DNA of 64,000 bases from positions 10,935,028 to 10,999,027 of the forward strand of contig NC_057714.1 of NCBI RefSeq assembly GCF_004010195.1, given 5' to 3'. The notes beneath the pieces were generated by a model. That model saw only the letters and a program-made list of their open reading frames with translations, ran no database searches and was not told the origin of the DNA. Of the stretch, positions 5,826 to 62,020 are shown piece after piece. This DNA comes from Chiloscyllium plagiosum (taxonomy: Eukaryota). Each line of letters starts with the position of its first letter. The stretch's first letter is position 1. Both the position numbers and the translations under genes were made by a program.

Positions 5826-6052
5826 AAGTTGATAGAGTGTGGTGCTGGAAAAAGCACAGCAGGTCAGACAGCAGCCGAGGAGTAAGAGAGTTGATGTTTC
5901 GGGCATAACCCTTCCTCAGGTCCTGATGAAGGGTTATGCCTGAAATGTTGACTCTCTTGCTCCTCAGATGCTGCCTGACCTGCTGTGCTTTTTCCAGCGC
6001 CACACATTATCGACTCTGACTCTCCAGGTTCTGCAGTCCTCACTATGTCCTC
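5826..6052. mobile_element. Penelope-like non-autonomous inverted-repeat element, family A, with degenerate hammerhead cores
   Basis: Imperfect inverted repeat centred at ~5920. CTGATGA-AGGGTTATGCCT-GAAA at 5923-5945. 12-bp TSD agtacaaattta (5814-5825 and 6053-6064). Confidence 0.85.
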
Positions 6053-6387
6053 AGTACAAATTTACCTAACCACAACTGGACATCAACGAGGTGCAGACAG
6101 CCTCAGCAGCAACAGAGTTGTAAGTTACCACAATTATTAAGCTAATGCCCCAGCATAGTTCTCAATGTACCATAATCCTCAAGCAGGCATTCAATCATGG
6201 TTCAATAAGCAACACAGAGGGGTCCATCAGGATCTGTACCAGGTACACCTAAAAATGAGGCTTCAACTTGGTAATGAGAGAGTGATATGCATAGTTAATC
6301 ATGATAATAGCATGCTGCTGCGACTGAGCTTGGAAGAGTGTGCCAAACACTTTCCAGTCCCATCGCCCACTTTAAATTTAACCATAG

Positions 6388-6608
6388 TCAGCATGGTGGC
6401 TCAGTGATTAGTACTGCTGCCTTATAGCGCATGGGACCTGGGTTTGATTCCACCCTGGGGTGACTGTTTGTGTGGAATTTGTATATTCTCCCTGAGTCTG
6501 GGTGGAGTTTTTCTGAGTGTTCCAGCTTTCTTCCACAGTCAGAAGATATGCAGGTTAGATGGATTGGCCATGCTAAATGTCCTGCTTCCACACTATAGAG
6601 ATTCTATG
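6388..6608 (+). mobile_element. HE1-type SINE (internally deleted)
   Basis: Head ggtggctcagtgattagtactgctgcc, B-box gggtttgattcc, tail ttccacactatagagattctatg. Confidence 0.88.
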
Positions 6609-7727
6609 TTGATGAAAAGGCCAACAACATAGTTCGCAGACTGTATCTGATTTTGTATTAAAAACTGTTCAGCCAGTTTCCTTTAATCAACAACTAATAA
6701 CAAGTTTATTACAAATAAACAAATGAATATGCAAAGATTGTTGAAGTAAAAATATTTAGGCTGCACAAGGATAGAACAGACTCCTATTCTAACATCTCAA
6801 ACTTAACTATCAACAAATAGGGGGAAGAGGATCCATGAATGATCATCAATGATGGGGAAGTCCCACACATTCAGTGCAAAAGGCAAGTTAGAAGCATTTG
6901 ACCATCTTCACTCAGAAATACCAAGTAGATGGCCCATTTCAGTCCTTAATTTGCTCATCATTAAAGATGTTAGTCATCGGACAATTCACTTCACGTGTAC
7001 CAGCTGAAGGCACTAGATAGTTCAAAGGTTGTGAGCCCCAGAACATTCCAACTCCGTGCTGACAACTTTTTGGCCAAAGGTGAAACTAGGTCTGGAGACG
7101 TCAGCAATGACACTAACACATATCTGAACACACAGTGGAAAATGATCCATTTACTTCCTGCCCAAATCAAAATCATCATAATACCAATCCAGTCATACAC
7201 TCTCAATCAGCAAAAATGTGATGAAAAGGGCCACCAATAGCCCTGTCAGGGATTGGATACTCACCATTGCTTAGTTCATGTTCTGCAAGGACCACTTAGC
7301 TCCAAACCTCATTACAGACTTTGTTCAAACACAAACAGAACAGCTAACTTTCAGAGGTGAAGTGCAAGTGACAGTGACTGCCTCTGACAACAAGGCAACA
7401 CTCGATCAAGTGTGGCCTCAAGGAGGCTGAGCAAAACTGAAGTCGATGGGAATCAAGAGAAAAATTCTCCACTTCACTGGAGTTATGCCAAGTACAACTA
7501 GAAAAGGTTTGTAGTTACTGAAGGCCAATTATCTCAATATCAGGACATCACTGCAGAAGTTCCTCATGGCACTGTCCCACTCTAAGCATCTTCTGTTGCT
7601 TCAGCAATGACTTGCCTCTTTTTTTAAGGTCAGAAGTGGGAATGTTCTCTATTGATTGCATAATGTTCAGTTCTGTTTACATTTTCTCAGATAATGAAGC
7701 AGTCAGTGATTGCTTGTTAAAAAAAGA

Positions 7728-8008
7728 ATGAGAGCACAGGTTTAAAAAGTGATGTGCAACTAAAGCAAAGGCGATGGAGAAAGAACTTTCTCACACAACA
7801 AGTATTTGCAGTTTGGAGTGCATTACCTGGAAAGGTGATAGAGGCAGGTTCAATTAAGGCATTCAAGAAGGTATTGGACAATTATTTGGATAGAAATGGA
7901 TATGGGCAAAAGCCATATGGGCAAAAGCCAGGAGAATGGCACTAAGTAACAGAACTAGTACAGACATGATGCGTCAGACAGCCTCCTTCTGTGCCATAAC
8001 AATGTTGT
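7728..8008 (+). mobile_element. CR1 LINE 3' fragment nested in the older LINE
   Basis: ORF 7754-7945 reads RKNFLTQQVFAVWSALPGKVIEAGSIKAFKKVLDNYL, the CR1 ORF2 C-terminal motif, followed by a 3' UTR. Confidence 0.85.
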
Positions 8009-9111
8009 CAAGACATAATTTTAGGCTTGAGCTCATTAATGGCAAGTAGCACTTAATCCATTTCAAGTGCCGACAATGAGTCTTATCCCCGACATTGAAT
8101 CACATTACCATCATCAAATTCCCCCATCAACAACATTTCTGGACTATCACTGACCACAAACTTACAAGGTCATCCATCTCAAAACAGATGGGATGGTATG
8201 TACTATAGGACAGGCAACTCACCTCGACTCCTGAAAGCCTGTTCCCCCATCTACAAAGCACAAGTGTCACTAATGTCAGGGCTTTCCACTTGTCAAGAAG
8301 AGTGCAGCTCCAACACTCAAAAAGCTTGCATCATCCAGGGCGAAGGAACCTTAAAACACTCACTCCAACTCTGGAGCACCTTATCAGCTGTGTGCAATAT
8401 CAATGTCACACAGCACTTCGACTCATCAACATTTTCCAAATAGTACCATCCAAGCCCACAAACTCAATTATTTAGAAGGACAAGGATAACATCTGCATGG
8501 GAACATCATAATCTTCAATTACCCCTCCAAGCCTTACTCTGTTGCCATCACTTCAATTTCATTTGGTCAAAATCCTGGGATTCTCTAAGAGTGCTGTGGG
8601 AATATTTTCACTACAGATAGCAGTAGTTGAAGGCGATAGCTCACTGTTATCTTCCTGAGGGCAGTCAGAGGAGGGACATTAACAGAGATGACCACATTCC
8701 ATGAATGAAAATTAAAAAGAATATCCAAACTTGCAAGCAATGTGACTCATCCTACAACAATAAATGGGGGCGGGAAATAGACTGAATACAAAGCACCAGA
8801 ATAATGGTATCACAATGTTTAGCTGAAGGAAATGTTTGTTCCAAGACTGGAGGTGGACAACCAATCTGACAGCACAGAAATGGAACACAGATAATCATAT
8901 CAACATGTGCGTGATATCAAATTGGAAACTTATTACATCACTGAGGACTTTCCATTATCTAACAGAAATCAGGCTGCACTCAACAAAAATGAATAAAGGT
9001 GTTTATCAACTGATATTTACACATCCAACCTCTTCAACGCGCCAAATATCTGTCTCAACTCCCCGAGTTTCCAAAAGAATAAGAACTAGATCTGTAGTGT
9101 TCTTGATATTT

Positions 9112-10503
9112 AGTCACAGGTGAGGTGCCGGGAGACTGGAGGTTGGCTAACCTGGTGCCTCTATTTCGAAAGATGGTAAGGACAAGCCAGGGAACTATAG
9201 ACCAGTGATCCCAATATTGGTGGTGGGCAACTTATTGAAGGGAATCCTGAGGGACAGGATGTACATGTATTTGGAAAGGCAAGGACTGATTAGGGATAGT
9301 CGACATGACTTTGTACGTGGGAAATCATGTCTCACAAACTTGATTGAGTTTTTTGAAGGAACAAAGAGGATTAATGAGGGCAGAGTGGTGGATGTGATCT
9401 ATATGGACTTCAGTAAGGCATACGACAAGGCTCCCCATGGGAGACTAGTTAGCAAGGTTAGATCTCACGGAATACAGGGAGAACTAGCCATTTGGATACA
9501 AAACTGGCTCAAAGGTAGTTTGCTGGAGGGTTGTTTTTTAGACTGGAGGCCTGTGACCAGTGGAGTGCCGGGTCCACTTCTTTTCATCATTTATATTAAT
9601 GATTTGGATGTGAGCATAAGAGGTACAATTACTACATTTGCAGATGACACCAAAATTGGAGGTGTAGTGGACAGTGAAGGAGGTTACTTTACGTTACAGA
9701 CGGGCTAAGTGGCAGATGGAGTTTAATTCAGATAAAATGCAAGGTACTGCATTTTGGGAAAGCAAATCTTGGCCGGACTTATACACTTAATGGCAAAGTC
9801 CTAGGGAGTGTTGCTGAACAAAGAGACCTTGGAGTGCAGGTTCATAGCTCCTTGAAAATGGAGTCACAGGTAGATAGGATAGTGAAGAAGGTGTTTGGTA
9901 TGCTTCCCGTTATTGGTCAGAGTATTGAATACAGGAGCTGAGAGATCATGTTGTGGCTGTACAGGACACTGGTTAGGCCACTGTTGGAATATTGTGTGCA
10001 ATTCTGGTCTTTTGAAAGGGTTCAGAAAAGAGTTACAAGGATGTTGCCAGGGTTGGAGGATTTGAGCTATAGGGAGAGGATGAATAGGCTGGGGCTGTTT
10101 TCCCTGGAGCGTCAGAGGCTGAGGGGTGACCTTATAGAGGTTTATAAAATCATGAGGGGCATGGATAGGTTAAATAGGCAAAGTCTTTTCCCTGGGGTGG
10201 GAGCATCCAGAAGTAGAGGGCATAGGTTTAGGGTGAGAGGGGAAAGATATAAAAGAGATCTAAGGGGCAACTTTTTCACGCAGAGGGTGGTACGTGTATG
10301 GAACAAGCTGCCAGAAGAAGTGGTGGAGGCTGGTACAATTGCAACATTTAAAAGCATTTGTATGGGTACATGAACAGGCAGGGTTTGGAGGGATATGGGC
10401 CAGGTGCTGGCAAGTGGGACTTGATTGGGTTGGGATATCTGGTCGGCATGGACAGGTTGGGCCGAATGGTCTGTTTCCGTGCTGTACATCTCTATGACTC
10501 TAT
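9112..10503 (+). mobile_element. 5'-truncated CR1/HER1 LINE (RT domain to 3' tail), frameshifted
   Basis: ORF 9205-9708 has KSCLTNLIEFF, VDVIYMDFSKAYDKAPH, GPLLFIIYINDL and FADDTKIGG. ORF 9948-10373 has LYRTLVRPLLEYCVQFW. Tail ctctatgactctat. Confidence 0.95.
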
Positions 10504-10569
10504 ACTATCAACGTTAAATTATCAAGACAGTAGCATGACTAAATGATAGACAACATGCAATCTCATGGA

Positions 10570-10585
10570 ATGCCATCTAGTGGCC
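10570..10585 (-). promoter_or_regulatory. Putative CTCF-binding motif
   Basis: Plus-strand tgccatctagtggcc is GGCCACTAGATGGCA on the minus strand, a close match to the CTCF core consensus, in unique sequence. Confidence 0.5.
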
Positions 10586-12064
10586 CTGCTCAGTACAGAC
10601 TACAGCATTTTGAAGCACCAGGTCAGAGGAATATACTAAAGCAAAGGATTATTCCAAACATTTCATAGGATTACGTAAAAGGCTATTCAATTTGAAGTAC
10701 CCCCGCCCCCTCAAATAATTTAGTTCAAAACATCCTCACTTCCACTTGTAGGGAAACAAATGCATCTCTAAAATTGTGGACAATTGCAAATCTTCCATGA
10801 CAACGCATTTTGCCGGTAGAGGGAAATTCCACTGATGAATGCCTATGAAATCAGTTCTTACTGTGAACTTAATTTGTTAGCTGTTGATCCCAGCACAATG
10901 ATGATGACTTGAAAAACTCCTGTTTCTGACCAGCCGGTGTTATACCAATAGCTAGATTTATTGCGATTAATGTGCCCAAGTAAATAAACACAAGCACTAC
11001 AAATGCCATTTCAATGGCTATTTACTGATGCAAACAGTAAAGGATTTTATTCTGTTAAAATGTTTCTGAAATTGGTGTCTGTCAGAATCTGATTTTTGAT
11101 ACCAGATCAAAGCACTGCTCTATTTGACCATCTGCACTTCAAATTTGTTAATTTAAAAAAAAGTGTAAAAGCATCATTTTCGGAAAGAGCAAATCTGTTT
11201 TTAAAAAAAACCCGCAATACAGTAAAAATATTTCAGCGATTTGTGAAGGTCAACAAGCAGACTCAAATTGAAAGCACACAGTGGATAGTATGAGTCATAC
11301 ATTGTTCACTTGCATTTGCATTCGGTGAAATCCCTGCACTAGACCAGAATTAGTAACAAGTGCACCACCTTGGGCTCCCATGGCGACAATGCTGGTCTAA
11401 ATTTAGACTCTTTTGTGATTTTCTTAAATAAATTCAAGCGTGAGAATTATGGGTGAAGATTGTATCTGTTCCTGTATTACTAAATTACTTGTGGACTAAT
11501 TCATTTCACTTAAAAAAAGAAATTGATATTCAGTATTATATTTAGAAATACCGGAAACTAGCTTTGTTGTTTCTAGAGTTCGATCTGTTGTATACAATCT
11601 TATGCCCATTAAAAACAAACAACCCTTTTCCCTTGCAAATTGAGATTTTGTTTGAGGCTTCACTGGCAAATTGACTAATTACTAAGCTGGATAATTCTGC
11701 TTGTTATCGGAGTTTCTTATTCCATAAAGTATGCAAATAAGCATATCAGTTGGGTAGATAATACGCATACTTTATAAAATTCCAAAAGCAACTTGAAAAG
11801 AAAAAATCAGTTTGCTTTATTACCAGCAATTCAAACCCAAAATAATTTACCAACTAATGTAATATTAGTACACTGTCATTCCCCAGAATAGTAGTAACAA
11901 TGGATGTTCCAAAACAAATAACATTAGAGGTGCATCTTTTGGCAGAAAGATTAGGACACTTTCTCCAGTACCTCTGGGAGACAGTGGTACCATGCGTAAA
12001 GTTAACATTTGTTTCCAATAACACTGACTCCAGAATGGTATTCTCAGCTAGACCAAGCACTTAC

Positions 12065-12182
12065 CCAAACTGCAAATGCAAGTAGCCTGAATTCCCACCA
12101 TTGGGAATAACCCAACAGCCAAAAACGACATTAATACTGTGAAATTTAATCCATTATGCAGGTGAAGGAAATTCCATTGCAT
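12065..12182 (-). CDS. Candidate alternative first coding exon (phase 1) with a hydrophobic, signal-like N-terminus
   Basis: ATG at 12182 is open to a strong donor TGG|GTAAGTG and encodes MQWNFLHLHNGLNFTVLMSFLAVGLFPMVGIQATCICSL(x). Lies in a TE-free island. Confidence 0.35.
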
Positions 12183-13872
12183 AAAATGTTTCTTACTAAT
12201 CTGGTTCACTCGACAAAACACAGAACAGGACAACACAAATAATGCAAGGAAGATACATATTTGTGACGTATCTTATTCTACGTTATTAAATTAACTTTTA
12301 GGAGACACAGTTACATTCACACAAAATCATTTTGGCATCATCAATAAGATGTGGACTTGATTCATGAGCAAACTAAAATCAAACAGCATCAACTCTCTTC
12401 AAGGAGATTGTTTCACATGCAATGCAATCTCTACCCTGGAAGAAAATATGCTTTAAAATTCAATTAGTCAATTGGCACTCCCGGAAATATTTAAATCTCA
12501 TCAAAACTTTTATTTTAAACAGATATATGAACGTGGTCACCCTACTCTCTCCAGTTGACTGCCTTGGGATGAGGCTGTACACATATCTAGACAGCAACCT
12601 TTGTGGTTTAACTCAATGGAATCTTGAGGAAAGCACGATCAACTGGCAGTTGTTCAATTATCCCATCAAGTGATTATTGGTTGATCAAACATTTAGTTTG
12701 TCTCTCCTCCTTTAATTGCTGATTTTCATGAAAAAATTCTTTCCCATATCAATTACAAAATTGTCCTTTACAAAACTGAAACTATATCATTTTAGCATCC
12801 TTCTATAGTTTACCATGCAGTCACACTCCAGTTTACTTCTTATTTCTGTGACATTCCCTCGGTCACCTTCTTTCAAGATTAAAGAGTCCCCACTTCTTTT
12901 TCAGGTCTGATAGGACTCTACCAGACAGTCAGCTGGGAAGGACTGAATGAAGTAAATGAGTAAATGGTTTTCCTTTCTGCTCCTTACAGTATGGTTTATG
13001 AACAGAATTAGCAAAGTCTTGGGAATAGGAAATCTGGACACACTGTTTATTGATGAAGGATAGTACATATACTTGGAACCAAGAATAAATATAGGTATAG
13101 ATAAGGGGAGGAGATAGGGAACAGACAGCAAGCGCTACTGTTTCACCCCTCCACTTCCCAGTAGTGGTAGTAGCAAATTGCATTCTGATATCACTAATAC
13201 CAAGAAGAACATGGGGACAGACAAGACTAGAAAACAGCATCCAACCCCATTGGTTGCACAAGAACAAAATATTATACAGCTGCAACTTTCAGGATTTAAG
13301 TTGATGAAACAAAATTCAGCATCATTTCGTCAATAGAATATTGTGCAAATACTAGGCGACAGGATACAAGTGACATTTTGTTTCCCATCAGCACAAACAG
13401 AAAAATGAAGCCAGCTTGGGATACCTAATTTAATAATTTAGTCCTTATGGGTTTCTTTTTGTGTAATATTGTGATGCACATTGCCTATGAGGACCAGGAA
13501 AAATCATCTTTTAAGCTTTTGACTCCAAATAATCAATTAAAGCAAAGAATACATACACAATTCATAATAAGTGAGTATAAATTCTTTGGAAGAGGAATAG
13601 GATTTCAAAATTAAACAAAATTATTATATTCATAAATGCATTCAAACTTATGATTTTACAACAAATTTTGCAATTGGAAAATTTGAAGCAGTCTACCAAC
13701 AGTAGTAAAGGATACTTAGCTTGCAATATCCTTTCTATTTGAAGCATGACTTGGTTCTCAAGGCATTTTCTCATCATTAAAACAATCAAAAGTGCTGAAT
13801 TTCATTGGATGTTTGTCAATAATTTAGAAACCTTCTGGATAGAGGCATTTCTTGCAATATTAAAATCACACT

Positions 13873-15580
13873 TAGTCATAGATTCATAGAGATGTACAGC
13901 ACAGAAACAGACCCTTTGGGTCTGTATTGATGATACAAATATCTCAGTAAGGGGCCCAGCAATCAATTCCCCAGCTTCCCACTGAGTTCTAGGATACACC
14001 TGATTAGGTCCTGGGGATTTATCGACTTATGTATTTCAAGACATCCAGCACTTCTTCCTCTGTAATACGGACATTTGTCAAGATGTCACCATCTATTTCC
14101 CTACATTCTATATCTTCCATGTCCTTTTCCACAGTAAGCACCGATGCAAAATATTCGTTTAGTATCACCACAATCTCCTGTGGCTCCACACAAAGGCCAT
14201 CTTACTGACTTTTGAGGGCCCTATTCTCTCCCTCGTTACCCTTTTGTCCTTAATGTGTTTGTAAAAACCTTTTGGATTCTCCTCAACTCTATTTGCCAAA
14301 ACAGTCTTATGTCACTGGCCCCAAAATGCTCCCCTACTGACACCTCAGTCACCTGCCCTGCCTCATTTTCCAAGAGTAGGTCAAGTTTTGCACCTTCTCT
14401 AGTAGGCACATCCACATACTGAATCATAAAATTTTCGTGAAAACCCTTAACAAATTCCTCTCCATCTAAATCCTTAACACTATGGCAGTCCCAGTTTGTG
14501 TCTGGAACGTTAAAATCCCCTACCATAACCACCATATTATTCTTACAGATTACTGAGATCTCCTTACAAATTTGTTTCTCAATTTCCTGTTGACGATGAT
14601 GGGGTCTATAATACAATCCCAATAAGGTGATTATCCCTTTCTTATTTCTCAGTTCCACCCAAATAACTTCCCAGGAATACCCTCCCTCAGTACAACTGTA
14701 ATGTTATCCCTTATCAAAAACACCACTCCCCCACCTCTCTTGCCTACCTTTTGGTCCTTCCTGTAGGATTTATATCCTGGAACATTAAACTGCCAGTCCT
14801 CTCCATCCCTGAGCCACATCTCTCTAACTGCTATGATATCCCAGTCCCATGTTCCTAACCATGCCCTGAGTTCATCTGCCTTCCCTGTTAGACCTCTTGC
14901 ATGGAAATAAATGCAGTTAAATTTATCAGTCCTATCTTGTTCTCTGCTTTGTCCCTGCCTGCCCTGAATGTTTGACCCATTTCTTTTCTCAACTGTACCA
15001 GTCTCAGATGGATCTCTTTCCTCACTACCTCCCTGTGTCCCACCCTCCACCCCCACCTTAATAGTTTAAATCCTCCAGAGCAGCTCTAGCAAATCTCCCT
15101 GCCAGTATATTAGCCCTCTTCCAATTCAGGTCCAATCCATCCTTCTTGTACAGGTCACTTCACCCCAGAAGAGATTCCAATGGTCCAAAAATGTGAATCT
15201 TTCTCCCATACACCAGCTCCTCAGCCTTGCATTCATCTGCTCTATCCTCCTATTCCTACCCTCACTAGCTTATAGCACAGGGAGTAATCCAGATAGTACT
15301 ACTCTAGAGGATCTCCTTTTTAAATTCCTGCCTAATTCTCTATAATCTCTCTTCAGAATCCCATCCTTTTCCCTTCCTATGTCGTTGGTTCCAATGTGTA
15401 CAATGACCTCCTGCTGGGCCCTCTCCCCACCTTGAGAACTTTCTGCACCCTCTCTGAGACATCCTTGATCCTGACATCAGGGAGGCAACACACCATTCTG
15501 CTTTTTTGCTGCTGGCCACAGAAACATCCATCTGTACCTTGGAACAGAGAGTCCCCTAACACAATTGGGCACTTACTATT
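13873..15580 (-). mobile_element. CR1/HER1 LINE: ORF1 esterase, APE endonuclease and linker, joined directly to a 3' tail (RT missing)
   Basis: ORF1 esterase motif IVLGDSL...MVCCLP. EN motifs FNCIYFHARGLTGKADELRAWL, VVMVGDFNVP, LDLLL and SD. Tail reverse complement tagtcatagattcatagagatgtacagcac at 13873-13921. Confidence 0.92.
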
Positions 15581-15670
15581 TTGGGATGGCAGGTATGTAA
15601 GATATTTGTGTGAACACTTGTGCATGTGAGTGAATGAGTGGAGTGAGTGCATGAGTGGAGCGAGTGTGGG

Positions 15671-15896
15671 AGGTAAATATAATGACTGCAGATGCTGGAA
15701 AGCAGAGTCTAGATTAGAGTGGTGCTGGAAAAGCACAGCAGGTCAGGCAGCGTCCAAGGAGCAGGAAAATAGACGTTTCGGGCAAAAGCCCTTCATCAGG
15801 AATAGATGAAGCGCTTTTGCCCAAAACGTCAATTTTCCTGCTCCTTGGACGCTGCCTGACCTGCTGTGCTTTTCCAGCACCACTCTGATCTAGACT
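15671..15896. mobile_element. Penelope-like inverted-repeat element, family A
   Basis: Inverted repeat 15706-15896. Intact minus-strand core CTGATGAAGGGCTTTTGCCCGAAACGTC at 15772-15799; the plus-strand copy is degenerate. Confidence 0.85.
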
Positions 15897-17237
15897 AATG
15901 TAAGCGAGAGAGTCAGGAAGCGAGACTGCAAGTGTGACGGTGGAGGGGGGGGGTGGGGGCAGTGGAAAAGAGGAGATGGTCAGCCACCAATCTTTGTCCT
16001 TAATACTGACTTTTTTTTTTAAAAAGACCAGCCTTAACTATTTACCTCATTATCTTTGTTTCTGCTCAATATTGGTGTCTAAAAAAGTTTGATATCAACT
16101 TCAAAATAATTTACATTACATAAATCTTGAATAATTCTGGTTTATCTAATTATTTTGTACAATAAATTACTCATTTCCAGAAAGATTTTTGCTCTTTGCA
16201 GTTACGATGCCATATTTATGTAAACTTCACAGCGAGTTCATGGATGTTCAGGCAAAACTGATGAATATTGAACAGAGCCAATGAAACAACAGCAGTTTCA
16301 CAAAAGTAGGTCCCTTACTAAAATGACATAATGCCTTTAGCCCATAATGAGGATTAATCTTTTTTTGGCCAACAGCTTGCGAAATAACCACACTGCAAAC
16401 CACTCCTCTCGAAAATTCTCCAGTTTTAGGCAAAACAGGAAACAGTATCATTTTTGTTCAAGCTTGCCATAGCTCTGGTGCCAAAGAATGCGCACTCCAT
16501 AACACAGGATTCAATAGTTTATGGGGAATCAGCTGCTTTTTTTAATTACTGCATGTGGACAACATTTGGAGGAATGCTATAGTCGTATTGGTTTCTTAAG
16601 AGAAAGCTTTCCCACAAATATGGTGACTTTTGCGCAATATACTTTCTCAACCTGCAGCCATCTCTCACCCTCACTTTAAACCACTAATCGCACAAAGTAA
16701 TAACAAATTAAGTGAGTTGGCAAATCCAAAATCCTCTCTCAAAGAACTGTCGCAGTACAATACCAACCGGGTGGTTACATACGGTCAATAATGAAGGAGA
16801 AAGAAAGAAATATATCAGAGAATGCTAAATGTACCTTAAGTAAAAATGATTTTTAAATTTCTTTTAATGGTCACTTCATTAGATTTTGGCCTGGTATTTA
16901 GGTGCAGCAGTTAAATTATGTTGTATTCCTTCTGAAACAGGTGGATGAGGAGAGGAAGGAAGGAAACTAGCTGGAAGGATTTTAAGAATCAGTCACAGAT
17001 GACAGAAAGCATACTCCTGGAGGTGGGGTGGGAGACATACCACAAGCTCAAATGGCCAACAAACAATTCAATGAGTTAACCTTTAACAGCACTGAGTGGC
17101 TTCAGATAAAAGCAAATTACAGCAGGAAGTCTGAAATAAAAACAAAGTGATGGAGAAACTGATTGATTTTAAAGTCAGTACAAAATCAATGTCTTGAAAG
17201 ATTGAAATGTAGAACCACAAAAACATATTCCACAGGA

Positions 17238-17664
17238 TTTGGAGATGCCAGTCCTGGACTGGGGTGTACAAAGTTAAAAATCACACACCAGGTTATAGTC
17301 CAACAGGTTTAATTGGAAGCACACTAGCTTTCAGAGCTCCACTCCTTCATCAGGTGGTTGTGGAGGACACAATTGTAAGACAGAATTTATAGCAAAAGTT
17401 TAGAGTGTAATGTAACTGAAATTATATATTGAAAAATACCTTAATTATTTGTTGAGTCTTTCATCGGTTCGAATACCATGATAGTTTCACTTTTTTGATG
17501 TGTAAATCACAATTTTTTTTAAAAAAGTTGCATTCTCAGGTTAACTGTAACAATTGGTGTTAGCTAGACAATATGTTGAAGGTGTTAGCCCCATTTAGAT
17601 TTTTAGATTGATTCTAATCTAAAAAGTGAGATAACAGAGTTTTACATGAATTCATGCATTCATA
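17238..17664 (-). mobile_element. Penelope-like element fragment, family B
   Basis: Minus-strand CTGATGAAGGAGTGGAGCTCTGAAAGCTA at 17325-17353. 13-bp TSD atattccacagga (17225-17237 and 17665-17677). Homologous to 39655-40229. Confidence 0.85.
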
Positions 17665-17789
17665 ATATTCCACAGGAGGTGGCAAAGGTGCAGCATTTCA
17701 ATTCCCAATGCTCAGTCAAAATAATTTTCCTCTCCTCCCCTCTTGACATTTTCCTCATAATTTTGGATGCTTGTAGTTATTAATCCAAA

Positions 17790-17970: not shown

Positions 17971-18001
17971 TAGTCAAAAAACAAGGTATCATAACAAACA
18001 T

Positions 18002-50919: not shown

Positions 50920-51160
50920 TAGTATAGTGACAATGTTACTGAATTAGAAATCCTGGTTTAGTGTTCCTACCGTTGTAGTTGAGGGAATTAGATATGGTTA
51001 GGGAGTGACAAACTGCTAGTGTCATTATTAATGAGTATGAAATTGTCACACTGTCATGAAAACCTACCTGCTTCACTCATGTCCTTCAGCAGAGAAAAAT
51101 CTGTAATCCTTATCAAACTGATATGCATGTGACTCTAGACCCACAGCAATGGGATTGGCA
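50920..51160 (+). mobile_element. Old SINE of the family related to the older LINE
   Basis: Collinear with 4835-5090: gctagtgtc, aaaaccta..ttcactcatgtccttc, gtgactctagacccacagcaat. Confidence 0.65.
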
Positions 51161-51725
51161 ATACATTGGCATTGCTAGGGTCTGGCATGTCTACTGCAAG
51201 GATGTCAAGTTTCAAATTAACTGGTGAAATGTACCTCTTGGGCTACAGCCAAATAACTTAGGAGCTGAACCAATAAGGAAGAATTACACTTTATTATATT
51301 TAGGCCAGTAGGGTAATTTTTCAATAGTAAACTAGAAAAGTAATTATGCCTCGCTCAGTGTGGTTTTCTTTGTAAAATGCCAGTGAAGCATAAATTTCAT
51401 TATCTTGTATTACCTTATCTTTATTGGTTTGTGTTTGACAGTTACACCTTAATATAAATCACTTTCTCATGGGTAATATCTCAACTGCTGAACTCGACTA
51501 AACCTTTACAAAGAAACAATTTGGTTAAACCCAACAGATTGAATTAGCAACATGAACCAATAGCGATATAGCCACTAAGGTTTAATTACTAGGAAGTGTG
51601 TATTCTTAGAAAAAATAACACACGCATCTCAGCAAATTCCTGATAAAGCCAACGGCATAAGAAAACCACAAGCCACTTATATATACACATACATACACAC
51701 ACATATTTAAAGAGACGTAACTTAC

Positions 51726-51787
51726 CACATAACTTGGCCTATATCTTTCAAAAAATTCAAAACCACATTCTTTTCTGAATTTTGCAT
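51726..51787 (-). CDS. Candidate alternative first coding exon (phase 2)
   Basis: ATG at 51787 is open to donor GTG|GTAAGT and encodes MQNSEKNVVLNFLKDIGQVM(W/C). TE-free island. Confidence 0.33.
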
Positions 51788-52039
51788 ATGACTACCTTGC
51801 CTCAATTACAGTAAAACCTTATAGTAGTTCAACAGTTGACACAAAAATGAAAGTTTACTAAGACTTTGGTAGGCAGCAATAGCTTGCTTCAATAGGTGCT
51901 GTTATAGGATTATAAGTACCATATTGGAAATGGTTATGACTGCGCATGATCATGAGTTCAGCAATATGAACCAGTTGTTTAGGCAGCATAAACATTATTT
52001 TTATAGCTTTCACTTCTGTTATCACAGGTAACGTGAATG

Positions 52040-54213
52040 TTCTATTTTGAATCTAAAAGTCAAAAGTTCTAAATGGAGGAAGGCCAATTTTAACGGTATT
52101 AGGTAGGAAGTTTCAAAAGTTGGTTGGGGTCGAATGTTCACAGGTAAATGTTCAGCTGGAAAATGAGGAGCTTCAGTAATGAGATAATGAGAGCCCAGAG
52201 ACATTATGTTCCTTTTAGGGTGAAAGGCAAGGCTGGTAGGTGTAGGGAATGCTGGATGACTGGAGAAATTGAGCTTTTGGTCAAGAATAAGAACAAAGCA
52301 TATGTCAGGTATAAACATCAGAGATAGAATAAATCCTTAGAAGAGTATAAAGGTATGAGGAGTATACTTAAGAGGGAAATCAGGCGGGCAAAACGGAGAT
52401 ATTTGGCAAATAGGGTTAAGGAGAATCCAAAAGGGACTCTATAAATACATTAAGGACAAAAGAGTAATTAGGGAGAGAATAGGGCCCCTTTAAAATAGGC
52501 AAGGCCAGCTGTGTGTGGAACCACAGGAGATAGAAGAGATACTATATGAGTATTTTTGCATCAATGTTTTAGTGTGGAGAAAATATGGAAGATAATAGAA
52601 CGTGGGGAGATAAATAGTGACATCTTGAAAAGTGTCCATATTACAGAGGTGATGATGCTTAGATGTCTTAAAATGCATAAACCCCCAGGACCTGATCAGA
52701 TGTACCCTAGAACTCTGTGGGAAGCCAGGGAAGCAATTCCTGGGATCCTTACTGAAATAGTTGCTTCATAATAGTCACAGGCGAGATGCCGGAAGACTGG
52801 AGGTTGGTTAAACTGGTGTCACTATTTAAGAATGGTGGTAAGAAAAAGCCAGGAACTATAGACCTGACATCAATGGCGGGCAAGTTGTTGGGGAAATCCT
52901 GAGGGACAGGATTTACATGCATTTGGAAAGGCAAGGACTGATTCGGGATAGTCAACATGGCTTTGTGTGTGGGGAATCATATCTCACAAACTTGACTGAG
53001 TTTTTTCTGAAGTAGTAATGAAGAGCATTGATGAGGGAAGAGCAGTGAATGTGATCTAAATGGACCTCAGCAAGGCGTTCAACAAGGCTCTGCACAGTAG
53101 GCTAGTTAGTAAGGTTAATAACATGGAATACAGGGAGAACTAGCCATGTGGATACAGACCTGGTTCAAAGGTAGAAGATAGAGGGTGGTGGAGGGTTGCT
53201 TTTCAGACTGGAGGCCTGTGACCAATTGTGTGCCACAAGGATCGGTGCTGTGTCCACTGCTTTTTGTCATTGATATAAATTGCTTGGATGTGAACAAAGA
53301 ACATATGGTTAGTAAGTTTACAGTTGACACCGGAATTGGTGGTGTAGTGGATAGCAAAGGTTACCTCAGAGTTCAACAAGACCTTGATCAGATGGGCCAA
53401 TGGGCTGAGGAGTGGCAGATGGAGTTTAATTTAGATAAATATGAGGTGTAGCATTTTGGAAAGGCAAATCAGGGCAGGGCTTATACACTTAATGGTAAGG
53501 TCCTGGGAGTGTTGCTGAACAAAAAGATCTTGGAGTGTGGGTTCATAGTTTGTTCAAAGTGGACTTGCAGGTAGACAGGATAGTGAAGGTGCATCCTTGC
53601 CTTTATTGGTCAGTGCATTGAGTACAGGAATTGGGAGGTCATGTTACAGCTGTATAAGACATTGGTTAGGTTGCTTTTAGAAAAGTGAATTCAATTCTGG
53701 TCTCCCTGCTAATAGGAAGGATGTTGTAAAACTTGAAAGGGTTCAGAAACAATTTACAAGAATATTGCCAGGATTACAGGATTCGAGTTAAAGGGAGAAG
53801 CTGAATAGGCTGGGGCTGGTTTTCCTAGATTATCAGAGGCTGAGGGATGACCTTATAAAACTCCAATAAGGTCATGAGGGGCATGGATAGGTTGAATAGC
53901 CAAGGTATTTTCCCAGGATAGCAGACTCCAAAAGAGGCCATAGTTTTAAAGTGAGGGGGGAGGGATTTAAAAGGGATCTAAAGGGCAACTTTTTCATGCA
54001 GAGGGTGATGCATGTGTGGAATGAGCTGCCAGAGGAAGTTGTGCAGGCTAGTACAATTAGAATATTTAAAAGGCATCTGGATAGTTATATGAGTGTTTTG
54101 AGTGATATGGGCCAAATGCTGGCAAATGGGACTAGATTAATATAGGATATCAGGTCAGCATAGATGAGTTAGACCATAGGGTCTGTCTTCATGCTGTACA
54201 GCTATATGACTCT
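52040..54213 (+). mobile_element. 5'-truncated CR1/HER1 LINE (linker, RT, 3' tail)
   Basis: PGPDQMYPRTLWEAREAI, VPQGSVLCPLLFVIDIN, KFTVDT and WQMEFN; tail gctgtacagctatatgactcta. Confidence 0.94.
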
Positions 54214-56059
54214 AAATGAAATTATTGTTTCTATGAATATTAGACCTACCACTAAGAACTACAATTGGCAACAACTAAGTTGTTGCTCACATGTCTTACA
54301 CACAACAAACACGAGGAACCATCACAAGACTAAACTGCTGAAAACCTAATTTATTACAACAGCAAGAAAATGAAGCATAAAGTGGCAAGACTCCTGTTTA
54401 AGACAGTTTCGGTCAACCTCCTCCCCCTTCTGGGAAATCATGTGTTATCATGAGTATGTTAAAGACCATCCCTGATGTCCCTATTGATTCCATTTTGAAA
54501 TGATTTGCTACATATGTGGAAGGTCAGAGATGATTTATTCTGGAAAGAAGATGCTCAAGTTATTGAATATAACATTTTAATCACCTCACATCTTGCTTAT
54601 TTACTCCTCTCCACAAGAAAATATCTGGCTTCTGTTTAACCATGCAGTCAAAATAAGAACTGTGACTTGGTCCCTGACTCTCCATCTAATGTGGGATCAT
54701 TGTCCAGTGCATGGTACAAACGCACCCCCTCCACAACATCCCACTTTCACATTAAAGCTTTGTTCTCAGATTTCTGTTGGTCTCAAGAACATGAATAATC
54801 AGCTTTGTATCCTTCAAAGGCAGAGAGATCAACTTATTCAAAAGCATGCTGACTGGTGTAACAGGAATATACTTAACTCCTCGCAACCGTGCAAAATTAG
54901 TGATTTCGAACCACTGCCGGTTAAGCCCATGCCATTTTCTTTTAAAATCAACTTACTGGAAAGGAAAGTTGGGCGAGTATATAACAGGTAGCCATAGTTG
55001 CCCATGTTATACAATACTAATGTCAGGCTAATTTTAATGTTTGTTCAGTGTGAGAAACATTAGCGCAGTTTGAATTTGAAAACTTCCTTTGAATTTACTG
55101 CTAAAACACCTTGAAGACAAATATCTGCAAATGCCTTACTACAAAGCCACCCCAAATTTAAAACTTGTTCCGTGGTATAAGCAATGCAATAGCTCCCAAA
55201 ATTAATTTATTTACAATTAACTCCACATAGTGTAAACACCATTGTACAGATCAAAATAAGATACTTGAGCATATAAATAGAAGTTACAAGATAACGAAAA
55301 CTGTAGGGGAAGTGTATTACAACTACTTCCCCAAAGTAACCTTTTAAAGGACACATCAGCTTGACTAAGTAGATTACAGGATGTTGTCCCACAGTATGGT
55401 TGACAGTTTTAAAAAGTAAACAAAAATATTACATTACTATAGCATAGTAATGATAAAGGAAATGTATGACATGCGGTTGTTTTATTTAGTCAAGAAAATT
55501 GCAAGGTCGTGCAACTTTACTGCTTAAAAATATGTATTTCCATTACAACGCGATTTAATATTCTTCAACATAGCAATATTCAATTACAAAAGAAAGCCTT
55601 CTGAACAAATTCATTAGGACAGTTGCAAGGAGTCTAGCCATTTTGTTGCGATTAACTAGCTTTAGTAATTTTCAAACTTGTCTCCATGTAGGACTCCCAA
55701 CGAACACTGCAATCCTATCTTTATTTCTAGCAGCTAACATCAGAAATCACAGAAAAAAAAGTAGCTAAAAACGGCTTTAGAGGAAAAAAAAAGGACATTG
55801 CAAGCAGCAACATAGAAGTTTAATGCTTCCTTCATAGATCTAATGACATTCTGGATCCTCTCATGAATTCCAAGGTGTGGGAAACCACAATTGAAACTTT
55901 TATTAACATAGTACACTTTTTTCTAATCGTTATACTTCCTTTCAATAATCAGAGAAACATATTCCATAAATCACTGATGATTAATCTATTTTCTAAATTC
56001 TCTACTAAACAATTTCCTATTTCTCTGTAGTTGGGAAAACAGCAGAGAGGGGAAAAAAA

Positions 56060-59000
56060 GAGTTTGAGACTGGTTATGTCAGATATCTATCAAAAGCACT
56101 GGCTTGCAATATTCCCAATTCTTGGAGCAGGAAAAGCATACTTTCTCCTTTGACTGATCAGACTTCAATACAGGTAGAGGAACAGATGGGGGGGCCTAGG
56201 TGCATTAATAAATAAAAAGTACAAGGACTCTGGGTAATCCAAGATGGAGAACAGGAAAAATTTGAGGCTGTAAGGGCTGCTCCTTTTTGAAGTATTTTTC
56301 GCATTAGAGCTGCTTTGCAGGAGAAGTAATTACAAAGCCGTTGCTTTGTTTTGGAAATTTCGGGAAAAGAGATCAAAACAACAGCTCTTTAAAAAGGAGG
56401 AAGTGAGACAAAGGCAGAGACCATGTAGTCAGTGAATCAAATAAGAAAGAAACCAAAACTGCTGTCTGACACAGCAAATCTGCATGGCTACTGTCTTTGC
56501 TTTTTGAGTTCAAGTATCGCTGGATATCAGGGCGCATCTAAGGAAAATTAACAAACAGCAAAATTTACAGCTGACCTTGAGAGCTCACAGCACGGGGTAC
56601 CTAAGTGCATTTTTTTGTTTAAAAGCGCTATTTTGCTGTTCCTTTTCTTGATAAATCTACAATAATGAGTAGAGTGGGTTCTTTTTTGATTATATTCTTT
56701 GTTGAGATCTGTCTCTTGATTAAAAATATAAAACATAGTAACTAAGTTAGCCTGTAGCAGTGTTTTATAGAGCAGTGACTGTGCTATTTTCTAGGTCTGC
56801 AGAGTGACGTTCTCTTCCTGCTGCATGTGGAAGATTATGAAGAGTTTCCAGATTACTGATGATCATGTCTGCAGGAAGTGTGTTTGGTTGAGAATCCTAT
56901 CAGATTGCATGGATTTGGTAGAATAGCAGTTTGAGGCAATGAGGAATTTACAGGAGCTAAGGGGTGTGATGGATGGCAGCTATAGGAAGGGAGAAAAGCA
57001 GCAGATACACAGTCAGGTAGATGGGTTAACTCCAGGAAAGGTAGGAGAGGGAGGAAAGTAGTGCAGGAGTCTCCTGTGGCTATCCCCCATCTCAAACAAG
57101 TATGCTGTTTTGGAAAATGTAGGGCATAGTGGACTCTCAGGGAAATGTAGCACCAATAGCAAAGTTTCTGGTATCGAGACAGGCTCTAATGTAATGATGA
57201 TACATCAGGTTAGAAGCGAGCGATTGTAATAGGGGACTCTCTAGTCAGAGGCACAGACAGAAGTTTCTGCGGCCAGCAGCAAAACATCAGAATGGTGTGT
57301 TGCCTCCTTGATCAAGAGAGAGTGCAGAATATTCTCAAAAGGGAAAGGGACCAGTTGGAGGTTATTATACATATTGGAAATAACGACATAGGAAGGGAAA
57401 CAGATGAGATTCTGAAGGGAGAATATAGAAAGTTAGGCACGAATTTAGAAAGGTCGTCTTTGAGAGTAATAATATCTGGATTACTCCTGGTGCGATGAGC
57501 TAGTGAGGGTAGGAATAGGAAGATAGAGCCAATGAATGCATGGCTGAGGAGTTGGTGCTGGGGAGAAGGATTCACATTTTTGGATCATTGGAATTTCTTT
57601 TGGGATTGAGGTTACCTGTATAAGAAGGACGGATTGCACCTGAATTGGAAGGGGACTAATATATTGGCAGGGAGATTTTCTAGAGCTGCTTGGGAGGATT
57701 TAAACTAGTAAGGCGGTAGGTGGGACCCAGGGAGTGAGTGAGGAAAGAGATCAGTCTAAGACTGGTACATTTGGGAAAAGGAGTACGTCAAACAGTCAGG
57801 GCAGGCAGGGATAGAGAATGAAGTAGGACTGATAAATTAAACTGATAAATATCAATGCAAGACGCCTAACAGGGAAGGCAGAAGAACTCAGGGTTGAGTT
57901 AGGAACATGGTTCCGGATGTAAAAGTTAAAGTTTTAAATTGAAGGAAAGCTAATGTTGATGGTATTAGGCAGGAACTTTCAAATATTGACTGGGGCCAAA
58001 TGTTCGCAGGTAAGGGGATGGCTGGAAAATGGGAAACCTTCAAAAATGAGATAAGAGAATCCAGAGACAGGTGAAAGGCAAGGCTGGGAGTTGTCAGAAA
58101 TGCTGGATGACTAAAGAAATTGAGGTTTTGGTCAAGAAAAAGAAGGAAGCATATGTCAGTTATAGACAGCAGATATCAATGAATCCTTAGAAGTATATAA
58201 AGGCGGTAGGAGTATACTTCAGAGGGAAATCAAAAAGGAGTCATGAGATAGCTTTGGCAAATAGGATTAAGGAGAATCCAAAGGGATTTTATAAATATAG
58301 TAAGGACAAAAGCGTAATGAGGGACAGAATATGGCCCCTCAAAGATTTGTAAGGCAGTCTGTATGTGGAACGGTAGAAGATGGGAGAGATATTAAATGAG
58401 TATTTTGCATCAGTATTTAGAGTGGAGAAGGTCATGGAAGATTTAGAATGTGGGGAAGTAAATGGTGACATCTTGAAAAATTCCTGAACAAAGGCGTATG
58501 CCCGAAATGTCGATTCTCCTGCTTCTTGGATGCTGCCTGACCTGCTGCGCTTTCCCAGCACCACACTCTGGACTCTGATTTCCAGCATCAGCAGTCCTCA
58601 CTTTCCAAGTTGTGAAAAATATCCATATTACAGAGGTGGTGGTGTTAGATGTCTTAAAATGCAAAAAAGATAGATAAATCCCTAGCACCCAATCAGGTGT
58701 ATCCTAGAATGCTGCTGGAAGCTAGGGAGGTAATTGCTGGGCTCCTTGCTCAGATATTTGTATCATCGATAATCACAGGTGAGGTGCCAGAAGACTGGAG
58801 GTGAACTAACACGCTGCCACTATTTAAGAAAGGTGGTAAGAAAAAGTCAGGGAACTATAGACCATTTGAGCCTGACATCGGTGGTGGGCAAGTTGTTGGA
58901 GGGAATCCTGAGGGACAGGATTTACATGTATTTGGAAAGGGCTGACTCGGGATAGTCAGTGCGTGGGAAATCATGTCCCACTAACTTGATTGAATTTTTT

Positions 59001-59625
59001 GATGAAGTAACAAAGAGGATTGTTGAGGGAAGAGCAGTGGATGTGATTTAAATGGACTTTGGTAAGGCATTTGACATGGTTCTTTATGGCGGATTGTTAG
59101 TAAGGTTAAATCACATGGAATACAAGGAGAACTAGCCATTTGGATGCAGAACTGGCTAAAAGACAAGGGTGGTGGTGGAGGGTTGCTTTTCAGACTGGAG
59201 GCCTGTGACCAGTGGTGTCACAAGGATCAGTGCTGTGTCCACTGCTTTTTATCATTTATATAAATGATTTGGATGTGAACATAGCAGATATGGTTAGTAA
59301 GTTTGCAGATGACACCAAACTCTGAGGTGTAGTGGACAGTGAAGAAGGATATCTCAGACTACAATGGGATCTTGAACAGATGGGCCAATGAGCTGAGGAG
59401 TGGCAGATAGAGTTTAATGTAGATAAATGTGAGGTGCTGTGTTTTGGAAAGGCAAATCAGGGCAGGACTTATATGCTTAATGGTAAGGTCCTGGGGAGTG
59501 TTGCTGAAGAGAGAGAGCTTGGAGTTCAGGTTCATAGTACCTTGAAAGTGGAGTCGCAGGTAGACAGAATAGTGAAAGCAGCATTTAGTATTCTTGTCTT
59601 TATTGGTCAGTGCATTGCATATAGG
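56060..59625 (+). mobile_element. Long CR1/HER1 LINE: putative 5' UTR, ORF1 (Zn finger and esterase), EN mostly deleted, RT; 3' end missing
   Basis: ORF1 SSCCMW..DDHVCRKC (~56815), IVIGDSLVRG and MVCCL..IHIGNNDIG. ORF2 NARRLTGKAEEL, then a deletion at ~57915, then FADDTK (~59300). The 5' boundary (56060-56800) is inferred. Confidence 0.88.
58482..58612 (+). mobile_element. Penelope-like element, family A, single arm, inserted in CR1
   Basis: Degenerate core cctgaacaaaggcgtatgcccgaaatgtcg plus the family tail. 8-bp TSD tgaaaaat (58474-58481 and 58613-58620). Confidence 0.85.
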
Positions 59626-61477
59626 ATTCAAAACAGCAGAACCTGGGGTTGGCAAAGGGATTCCAAATGCTCAGGCAGGTGTAAATGTAATTCACAAATA
59701 TGATTAATGAAAACTGCAGCACAGATAACACATATTTAGGATGAGTATGAAGGGAAAGAATCCACACACTGCAGCTCCTCAGCAACGAATCATCCAAACA
59801 TCTTGGGACATGGATAATCAGTATGTCTTCACTGTCTAAGTTGACATGTAGTCCCTCAGCAGAAATGCAGTTTTGCATCCCCTTTCTCCATGCTTCAGGT
59901 CTCTCAAAGATTAAAAATTGATGTTTAAACATATGCATGTGTGCAGTTGTGTCAGAATGAAGAGATCTGAAACAAAATTATATTTAAAGACTAAGACATA
60001 GCATTCGATTCACAGTTGCAGTTGGAATACCTTTGTAGCTTCGGATTCGCAGTTTTGTGAAGGAAAGAGACGTCATCTTAAAAGTACAGCATAGTTACAG
60101 TAGGATCTGATCATCAATAAGCTTGAAGAAAGTCTCGAGAAGCATGGGCTTTTATGACCAGAGTTTAAGACATGACCAAATAAAACTAACTATGATTAGA
60201 TAAAGAAAGAAAAGTCTTCTTTATTGCTCAGCTGAAGGCATCAGAAAGCCAAACTATGATAATCACAAAGCAAATTAAAGGTTAGGTTTAAAAACTTATT
60301 GATAGTCCTCCAATTATTTTAAAAGATTATCCTTTCCATAAACAGCAATAATGTTCATTAGAGGATATGTGAGGAGCAACAAAAAAAAAAGATAAGGGAG
60401 GAAATTTTCCATTTTAATTTGGTATTTTGTCGAATGACATTCACGGTGTCCGGTCCACCATGACTCAGTGATTTTTCTCTCTCAATCTTCTGCTCTACCT
60501 CACATTAACAATGCAACTGGGCTCTTGCGCATCTTTCACAGAGAATTGTATAGCTAGAGAACCACATGTGCTTGCCACTGTCAGCTTCTTCCAGCATTCA
60601 AACCATTGGCATATCTTTTGCACCCTCTCCAAAGCCTCTGTATCCTTCCTATAGAATGCGAATCAGAAATGCACACAATGCACCAAATGTGGCTTAATTG
60701 AAGTTTTATACTGCTGCAACATGACGTGCCAACTTTTATGCTCAATGCCCCAACTGATAAATGCAAACATGCCGTATGCCTTCATTACCATCTTATCCAT
60801 TTGTGTTGCCACTTTAAGGGAGCAATGCACCCTTACATCCTTCTATATAACAACGTTCCACTTACTGTACACTTTCCTCTTGCAATTGACCTCTCAATAT
60901 GCAATACTTCACATTTGTCTCGATTAAGTCTGCCATTTCTCCATGCAACTTTCCAACTGATCCTATTATATCCTTTGACAACCACACCAATCTTTGCAGT
61001 GTCTGCATACTTACTAATCAGACCACCTCCATTTTCATCCAAATCATTTACATATTTTACAAACAACATCAGTCCCAGCACTGATCCTTGTGGAGCCTCA
61101 TGGATCAGTCAGAATAACACCCCTCCATAATTATCTTTTGACTTCTTTGACCAAGTTAATTTTGTATCCATGTAGACAACAGCAACTGCCCTACTATCAA
61201 TCACCTTTGTCACTTCCTCAAAAAACTCAATTGTGAGAGGAGACTACTCCACACAAAGCCATGTTGACTATCTCTAATAAGTCCATTCTTTTCCAAATGC
61301 AAGTAGATCCTGTCTCTAAGAATCATCTCCAATAATTTTCCCACCACTGATGCAACACTCATTGGCCTAAAATTTCCTGGATTATCTTGGTTGTCCTTCT
61401 TAAGTAAAGGAACCATATTAGATATTCTCCAGACTTCTGGGACATCATCTGTGGTTGAAGAGGTTATTTAAATGTTT

Positions 61478-61600
61478 CTGGTCCGGTGATCCTTCCTCAG
61501 ATTTGAGTTCTGAGGAAAGGTCACTAGACCTGAAACATTAACTTTGATTTCTCTGCACAAATGCTGCCAAACCTGCTGAACTTTTCAAGCAATCTCTGCT
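61478..61600 (+). mobile_element. Penelope-like element, family C, with a short inverted arm
   Basis: CTGAGGA-A-AGGTC-ACTA-GACCT-GAAA-CATT at 61510-61539. Inverted partial copy gtccggtgatccttcctcaga at 61481-61501. Confidence 0.78.
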
Positions 61601-61935
61601 AACTAACAAACAAATCTCCTCCCTTGCCTCCCTCAGTATCCGAGGAAAGATCCCATCAGGCCTGGGGACTTATCTACCTGAAGTGTTTTTCAAGATACCC
61701 AACAGTCATCCTCCTTAATATCGATGTGCCTCAGAATATCAATATACCTCTCTCTAACCTTACCGTCCACATCCTTCTCCTTGGTGAATACCAATGCAAA
61801 GTACTCATTAAGGAACCCACCCACTTCCTCTGACTCCTTGCATAAATTCCTCCTTTGTCCTCGAGTGGACCTACTCTCTTGCTCCTAATATACATATAAA
61901 ATGCCTTGAGATTCTCCTTAATCCTACTTGCCAAA

Positions 61936-62020
61936 ATCCACAACCACCTAAGGAAGGAGCAGCTGTTCCAAATAAACCTGTTGGACTATAACCGGGTGTA
62001 GTGTGATTTTTAAAATTTGA
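61936..62020 (+). mobile_element. Penelope-like element, family B, short deleted copy
   Basis: aaacctgttggactataaccgggtgtagtgtgattttt matches 40191-40229. 12-bp TSD ctacttgccaaa (61924-61935 and 62021-62032). Confidence 0.82.

Follow-up and report, generated by a model that had tools for sequence, protein, structure and literature searches.

Minimal type I hammerhead ribozyme motifs (min-HHRs) are known from the pseudo-long terminal repeats (pLTRs) of metazoan Penelope-like elements (PLEs), where, in the portions of the source covered, they are mostly solo with some close opposite-strand pairs, an arrangement ascribed there to truncated PLEs and likewise seen here (Cervera and De la Pena, 2014, PMC4209133). 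Insertions of endonuclease-encoding (EN+) PLEs, as described in excerpts of two further papers, share with those reported here a head-to-head inverted 5′-truncated copy, a one-sided tail of 30-40 nt, and a target-site duplication (TSD) (Arkhipova, 2013, PMC3846280; Craig, 2021, PMC8557442). For PAc, a Poseidon-clade element of Anolis, the element protein cuts and extends both DNA strands, two internal reverse-transcription starts bound the tail, uncleaved RNA serves as template, and the ribozyme is dispensable in vitro, according to the main-text portions covered (Frangieh, 2024, PMC11167929); an internal promoter is described for Penelope itself in the portion covered of PMC2377424. Non-LTR retrozymes, reported from one chondrichthyan, are likewise non-coding, PLE-derived, and equipped with a type I hammerhead; however, they are defined in the preprint portions covered as head-to-tail tandem arrays (Li, Clavereau, Pollet, 2026, bioRxiv 10.64898/2026.07.22.740005), whereas the copies described here are scattered, singly or in head-to-head pairs, and have TSDs. 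How PLEs complete insertion and what purpose the hammerhead serves are treated as open questions in the sections covered of PMC11167929, PMC8557442, and PMC3846280. Here, 11 short hammerhead-type insertions of three families (A, B, and C) were analysed in a 64-kb window, the whole stretch under study (G000:C5:10935028-10999027), within the 3.56-Gb genome of the shark Chiloscyllium plagiosum.

All 11 insertions listed in the original prediction are present at the positions given there. They are probably the ribozyme-bearing ends, each a pLTR plus an optional tail of 35-37 nt, of several PLEs likely belonging to the Neptune clade, and would form as reverse transcription is primed by the two nicked strands of the target at two fixed internal sites of a mostly uncleaved RNA that likely starts just before the hammerhead. 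The observations behind this reading are the link to GIY-YIG and reverse transcriptase (RT) sequences, two fixed 3′ ends, one tail per insertion, a pile-up of 5′ ends, and TSDs.

Absence of an open reading frame (ORF) holds for the copies in the window but not for the families, whose longer copies carry coding sequence. Of the linked RT and GIY-YIG ORFs that the original prediction had proposed to look for, coding sequence for both was found for family A, and for GIY-YIG only in B (L112, L100, L035), C (L108), and a further type, D (L115). In the family A locus L062, 90 kb from the window, RT is followed by GIY-YIG, a 3′ untranslated region (UTR), and ribozyme A, and the order RT then GIY-YIG upstream of the A ribozyme end is repeated in L113 and L155. 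L155 (G000:C1:8906500-8912800) is a PLE copy situated within a long CTGTACT-type satellite. Two other family A loci (L169 and L164) read pLTR, tail, ORF start, gap, pLTR, with the tail continuing into the ORF start region, and partial-tandem direct pLTRs occur in these two and in L029/L030. In family B the GIY-YIG differs from that of A and is followed by a (CA)n-containing UTR and then the B ribozyme; across the longer A, B, and C copies, the distance from GIY-YIG to the ribozyme end is 260-770 nt. The 45 longer relatives include proteins with RVT_1 and GIY-YIG, and the closest protein relatives of the element come from carpet sharks. Between RT and the endonuclease lies a CX2-5CxxC zinc-finger-like linker (CNRRRCNTC for A in L113, CPGNHCKVC for B in L100), a feature attributed to Neptune in the portions covered of PMC8557442. 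By this motif alone, the coding elements would likely belong to the Neptune clade, the name being limited to that basis because Nematis shares a linker motif. They thus differ from the Poseidon-clade PAc, whose ORF begins from stem II according to the covered parts of PMC11167929, whereas a Neptune-type linker and likely an ATG after the tail are seen here. Another PLE, with a different GIY-YIG (YIGQTGRK) and the hammerhead stem GTTACC/GGTGAC, was found in L083, L033, and two sample matches, with none seen in the window. We take this YIGQTGRK-type element to be Poseidon-like.

The proposal that the families are non-autonomous fares poorly against these loci, in which the same ribozyme ends trail GIY-YIG in longer A, B, and C copies and, in A, flank a pLTR-ORF-pLTR arrangement. 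Because the same ends follow or flank coding sequence, the window inserts are best read, on sequence grounds, as stumps of autonomous endonuclease-encoding PLEs. Under the alternative, the short copies would be true non-autonomous units of ∼130 nt, made up of promoter, ribozyme, and reverse-transcription start sites, with transcription of their own and renewed mobilisation in trans by the Penelope protein. A stump does cover the stretch from the inferred start through the reverse-transcription start sites, and all cis signals may be present; stumps also far outnumber ORF-bearing copies (∼230 insertions versus six recognisable GIY-YIG remnants in 1.2 Mb), and pLTRs are able to mobilise other DNA in trans according to the covered portions of PMC3846280. 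However, each of the main short variants that were checked has longer counterparts in which a 3′ UTR or GIY-YIG lies upstream, and palindrome centres differ between copies, with no fixed mini-element structure found among them, which leaves independent non-autonomous units an unlikely account.

The ends were characterised in a sample comprising 264 kb around the window and 20 blocks of 50 kb from arbitrary places on large contigs (1,214,797 non-N bases), in which 317 merged matches yielded 313 aligned matches and 297 arms with a score of at least 50. Copies were located by sequence downstream of the ribozyme only, so that the 5′ ends of arms are unbiased by the core. The 3′ ends were bimodal, falling at ∼+80-94 and +123-131 in A and at +80-92 and +120-125 in B. 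Sixty-seven inverted pairs were present among the 297 arms, 61 of them A or B; seven of these 61 could not be classified, and each of the other 54 combined one tail arm with one no-tail arm (54/54). When two segmental duplicates are left out, the one-tail rule holds in 52/52 (p 4e-16 at 0.5), compared with a tail that is optional or “often” one-sided in the covered portions of PMC3846280 and PMC8557442; the shark insertion also often consists of just two pLTR arms, unlike the descriptions given there. A ∼21-kb segmental duplication with two pairs of matching insertions sharing the same flanks lies in G000:C8:50000001-50050000 (L181-L185). TSDs in the sample measured ∼8-20 bp, compared with a random rate of 10/400, and the 67 palindrome junctions comprised 29 overlaps, nine blunt joins, and 29 with inserts.

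The lengths of the two arms bear on the origin of the palindromes, which could also come from fold-back self-priming of one cDNA or antisense template followed by trimming of the centre (Arkhipova, 2013). Several centres are symmetric, arms of the same palindrome resemble each other more than arms of different palindromes (0.94 versus 0.87 in A, 0.89 versus 0.85 in B), and private changes can be common to both arms (L014), all of which fold-back would produce. It requires, however, that the tail arm reach at least as far 5′ as its partner, whereas among 52 palindromes the tail arm reached further in 16, the no-tail arm in 20, and the two were level in 16. The no-tail arm was longer by >25 nt in 10 cases, and in L062 and L155 the difference amounted to hundreds to thousands of bases; these two, together with L131 and L147, are long direct copies in which the inverted part is no more than a short stub of the tail. 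A longer no-tail arm is impossible under simple fold-back without large deletions, which speaks against that model. Additionally, about three of 14 examined pairs join different subfamilies (L166, L247/L248, L254), which suggests either that two RNAs served as templates or that the target was itself an older copy. The self-priming model is thus disfavoured by the arm lengths found here, and we regard it as decidedly improbable.

At the 5′ side, ends accumulate at -10..+9 in 94/163 A arms (eight more, next to gaps, were dropped), 32/79 B arms, and 22/47 C/D arms, with a mode of -4/-3 in A, whereas few fall around the predicted ribozyme cut site (+28; window +26..+32): 3/163 in A, 6/79 in B, and 2/47 in C/D. 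A boundary at this same place is also seen in reads from a single RNA run, with 221 loose ends before -4; this run had equal depth on both strands and no pile-ups of starts or ends, and, as a poly(A) single-cell library possibly from another species, cannot show cleaved ends. Genome-wide counting with exact sequence patterns found 101,071 A arms that read through the cut site, 2,047 that apparently start there, and 320 that start at a control position. Among the first 30 cut-site loci, ∼10 had an internal 16-nt duplication, two had point changes, seven were microhomology joins, and 9-11 were plain junctions, and after correction for chance letters cut-site starts make up at most ∼3% of arms. 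The 16-nt tandem duplication, which starts exactly at the predicted cut site, characterises a subfamily of A (L280, L285, L287, L289/L290, L292, L298-L300) and is also explicable by GAT microhomology. Template switches are suggested by TSD-bounded or internally deleted copies in L029/L030, L166, and L155, where the sequence jumps from the ORF start either into the 3′ UTR or onto the front edge of the 3′ ribozyme.

The sequence of events that would join these ends begins with staggered nicks, ∼8-20 bp apart, presumably made by the element protein. One 3′-OH would then prime at the no-tail site, ∼+90 from the first C of the core, and the other at the tail end, ∼+125, and each cDNA would extend to the 5′ end of the RNA, whose mode at -4 is the A of an initiator-like TCATTCC/TTATTCC. 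Both cDNA ends would be joined in the middle of the insertion, often via microhomology. With no more than 95-130 nt between the start site and the 5′ end of the RNA, mostly stumps and palindromes would be produced, and long copies would require read-through from a tandem copy. PAc fits this scheme in its two tail-bounding reverse-transcription starts, its cutting and extension of both strands, and its uncleaved template; the covered main-text portions of PMC11167929 do not tie the two starts to both ends of one insertion. We lean slightly towards the more specific proposal that PLE insertion proceeds by obligatory twin priming: the two nicks would be assigned to the two fixed start sites on the RNA, the tail would be the trace left by one of two reverse transcriptases acting in coordination, and the template would run from the front edge of an uncut hammerhead, hence a 130-nt promoter-ribozyme-start module as the default product, able to flood a genome.

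Several observations weigh against priming at two fixed sites of uncleaved PLE RNA. The Pfam scores of GIY-YIG (22.4 bits, E 1.5e-4; curated cut-off 22.6) and RVT_1 (20.4 bits, E 4.5e-4; curated cut-off 29.6) are both under the curated cut-offs, a gap-free full ORF was found in 0/50 loci picked by ORF start, most of which have assembly gaps, and RT was seen for none of B, C, and D. The putative transcription start is read from DNA ends alone; the hint of a cap-derived G there is weak (G 29 versus A 21 in the first 100 of 2,736 matches by hand count, p 0.013, with some G coming from inverted arms), family B lacks a clear match to the initiator, and ∼5/42 single A arms scored at -10..+9 run on into 3′ UTR absent from the reference. 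Some junctions are perfectly symmetric, as at 25933, which is also expected from fold-back, and any deletion that later removed part of the centre could obscure the comparison of arm lengths. Finally, cut-site starts may be in two- to threefold excess over background, and because they exceed those at the control position a small cleaved class may exist.

The hammerhead motif itself was claimed for the best-preserved copies as CTGA-N-GA, a paired hairpin, and GAAA, which is borne out in nine arms of six of the 11 insertions but not in the other five (29923, 33381, 35983, 58482, and 61936), where the core is decayed or cut off. The full minimal descriptor (core, palindromic helix III, UH, and stem I of at least 2 bp), a check suggested in the original prediction, gave a positive result in four arms of three insertions (26076+, 26059-, 39778-, and 17353-). 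The same descriptor found 41 motifs in the 1.215-Mb sample versus none in the reversed sequence, so that chance was rejected as their source; in the first 638 kb, 25 motifs stood against 0, 1, 0, and 0 in reversed and Markov controls. An Rfam search of the window, also suggested, yielded only weak microRNA (miRNA)-hairpin matches and no hammerhead, with E values of up to 10 admitted. The identification as minimal type I hammerheads of PLE pLTRs agrees with the min-HHR consensus in the covered portions of PMC4209133 (CUGANGAH, a G..C helix II, GAAA, a palindromic 2-nt helix III, NUH, and a short helix I); at 4-5 bp for helix II and 2-4 bp for helix I, the shark forms are shorter than the schistosome forms described there. 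Two descriptions of the families needed correction: the usual stem II of family C is GGGTC/GACCC, with AGGTC/GACCT a minority or decayed form, and the families do not share as little sequence as supposed, A and C showing a relationship (69% over 95 nt) in the part that follows the ribozyme.

The very large copy number that had been predicted was recovered genome-wide, with exact cores on the two strands numbering 40,334 and 40,389 for A, 8,281 and 8,169 for B, and 127 and 140 for C (∼97,000 in total), and 0 for each of the three reversed control patterns. Extrapolation from the descriptor gives ∼115,000 intact motifs, assuming 3.4 Gb of non-N sequence. Arms account for 3.4% of the sampled DNA, at ∼190 insertions per Mb. 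By comparison, the covered portions of PMC4209133 count ∼9,000 in Xenopus and ∼4,000 in coelacanth, roughly one tenth of the exact cores here, by another method.

Ten hand-picked natural copies from four lineages show both-side changes at I.1, I.2, I.3, II.3, II.4, and 15.2-16.2, counted with CTGA and GAAA as anchors, in lineages that are related. Within families, variation is concentrated at N7, loop II, N17, and CpG sites, and A/T core columns vary less than other A/T columns (6/708, 0.8%, versus 93/2016, 4.6%, in A; 2/294 versus 65/1200 in B). G/C core columns are kept no better than other columns, and the CpG sites of the motif decay at 17-34%. Column variation and CpG decay together fit a ribozyme that is selected on source elements and decays after insertion. 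Monomer folds of the motif were not unusually stable (z -0.3 to -2.2), and the modelled active dimers, at -13.3 and -13.9 kcal/mol, compare with -22.8 and -20.2 kcal/mol for two folded monomers under a nearest-neighbour model that ignores tertiary contacts of the core. Cores within a palindrome cannot form a cis dimer because they lie on opposite strands and are folded into a long hairpin.

A ribozyme that actively processes its template or host transcripts, with cleaved RNA as the regular substrate and intronic cores cutting pre-mRNA or being co-opted, would account for stem covariation across lineages as selection on the fold, for the low variation of A/T core columns, and for the apparent excess of starts at the cut site. 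Many of those starts, however, are the duplications, point changes, and microhomology joins noted above; the CpG sites decay freely and the G/C core columns gain no protection; the active dimer is modelled as less stable, by ∼6-10 kcal/mol, than a pair of folded monomers; and published min-HHRs, in the portions covered, show weak cleavage (PMC4209133) or depend on the element protein (PMC11167929). Regular processing by the ribozyme is therefore highly improbable. Other candidates were rejected outright, namely a miniature inverted-repeat transposable element (MITE) or other DNA transposon (the ends are asymmetric, with a tail on one, and centres and TSD lengths vary), a tandem retrozyme (Tandem Repeats Finder reported no head-to-tail array in the window, and pairs are head-to-head), and a tRNA gene.

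Within the window, six of the 11 insertions are head-to-head inverted pairs, a feature left out of the original prediction, and the TSDs it gave for seven copies are convincing in 7/11, at 8-14 bp. Among the flanks of the 11 insertions, no convincing TSD was found at 15671, 33381, 35983, and 61478. The young family A palindrome at 25933..26165 has 98-nt arms that are 100% complementary, a tail on the left arm only, a 14-bp TSD, and intact cores at 26059 (-) and 26076 (+), and is predicted to fold into a single hairpin of -208.7 kcal/mol. The other family A palindromes are as follows: at 5826..6052, an inverted arm without a tail (5838-5920, -) and a direct arm with a tail (∼5921-6052, +) both have CpG-decayed cores, flanked by the 12-bp TSD AGTACAAATTTA at 5814 and 6053; at 15670..15896, the tail arm (15670-15804, -, core 15799) has a broken stem I and is joined to a no-tail arm (15805-15896, +); and at 29923..30102, the tail arm is cut at +39 and the no-tail arm, which starts from -1, has a decayed core, with an exact 10-bp TSD. 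Single A arms with a tail lie at 33384..33503 (-), with the 5′ end within the core (+4), and at 58480..58612 (+), which starts at -4 (ATTCC), has a decayed core and an 8-bp TSD, and is located within an old long interspersed element (LINE).

Family B is represented by a single copy with a tail at 17238..17664 (-), which has an intact minimal hammerhead motif at 17353, a 13-bp TSD, and ∼330 nt of 3′ UTR from the autonomous element, matching L032 and L112; it is sense to the host pre-mRNA. The B palindrome at 39655..40229 combines a tail arm (39657-39811, -) with an intact core at 39778 and a no-tail arm (∼39812-40229, +) interrupted by a younger insert resembling a short interspersed element (SINE) at ∼39864-40190, and its 12-bp TSD TATAAATATTGT, at 39643 and 40230, is visible only after that insert is skipped. 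A no-tail B arm at 61936..62020 (+) has a mutated and partly deleted core and a 12-bp TSD. An old C-like copy with a tail-like end at 35983..36102 (-) contains CTGAGGAA, a decayed GAAA, and an internal deletion, and the family C inverted pair at 61471..61600 consists of a short inverted arm (core 61500, -) and a direct arm (core 61510, +) with a decayed helix III.

Neighbouring repeats were also recorded. The SINE-like repeat at 39864-40190 ends in (TCTAA)n and has relatives at 25553-25690, 28882-29019, 6435-6578, and 2019-2146; we take it to resemble the shark HE1 SINE, and the neighbouring repeats in the window are presumably of the CR1 and HE1 types. A 626-bp tandem duplication, 97% identical (44415-44714 and 45041-45340), lies within an old LINE fragment, and a 15-bp perfect tandem repeat in a LINE 3′ end at 7900-7930 shares GGGCAAAAGCC yet is not family A.

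The entire window (1..64000) is enclosed in one host intron of 158,073 bp (G000:C5:10900745-11058817, - strand, GT..AG, L067 to L076) of a BCL2-like gene, which was identified from the flanks of the window. Its upstream exon (L076/L077) encodes Pfam BH4 and Bcl-2 domains and its last coding exon is in L067, behind the AG acceptor; Pfam searches of 265 non-repeat frames found no host exon in the window itself. Single arms in the intron number nine antisense versus six sense, too few to judge a bias. Three intact cores face the host pre-mRNA, two of them in palindromic insertions, leaving the one at 17353 as the sole free core, and hammerhead cleavage of the BCL2-like pre-mRNA is likely negligible. 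The expectation of very many ribozyme cores in introns is therefore right as to location and abundance, the window being intronic and the motifs abundant, but overstated as to functional weight, as most cores are decayed; to judge from their sequences, ribozymes in host introns are likely silent.

Minimal hammerheads, inverted copies, and one-sided tails are already published for PLEs, and because motifs of this kind are known they are in themselves no surprise; what is useful is the number of motifs and the strict pattern of ends, in which the way these elements are copied is likely preserved. Cartilaginous fish are absent from the main text and supplement 2 of PMC4209133, as far as these were searched, and the literature search found no report of shark hammerheads or Neptune elements, although the families may be catalogued in Repbase or Dfam. 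For annotation, the stumps, at ∼3% of the sampled DNA, are mistakable for MITEs, miRNA hairpins, or new ribozyme families, and the palindromes bring long double-stranded RNA into introns, here those of a BCL2-like gene. The strict rule of one tail per palindrome, arm lengths that may differ in either direction, and the pile-up of 5′ ends before an uncut ribozyme give the in vitro assay that already exists precise predictions to address, with the genome as a test bed. If insertion does proceed by twin priming, the shark genome would preserve the traces of hundreds of thousands of events of the least understood class of retrotransposition.

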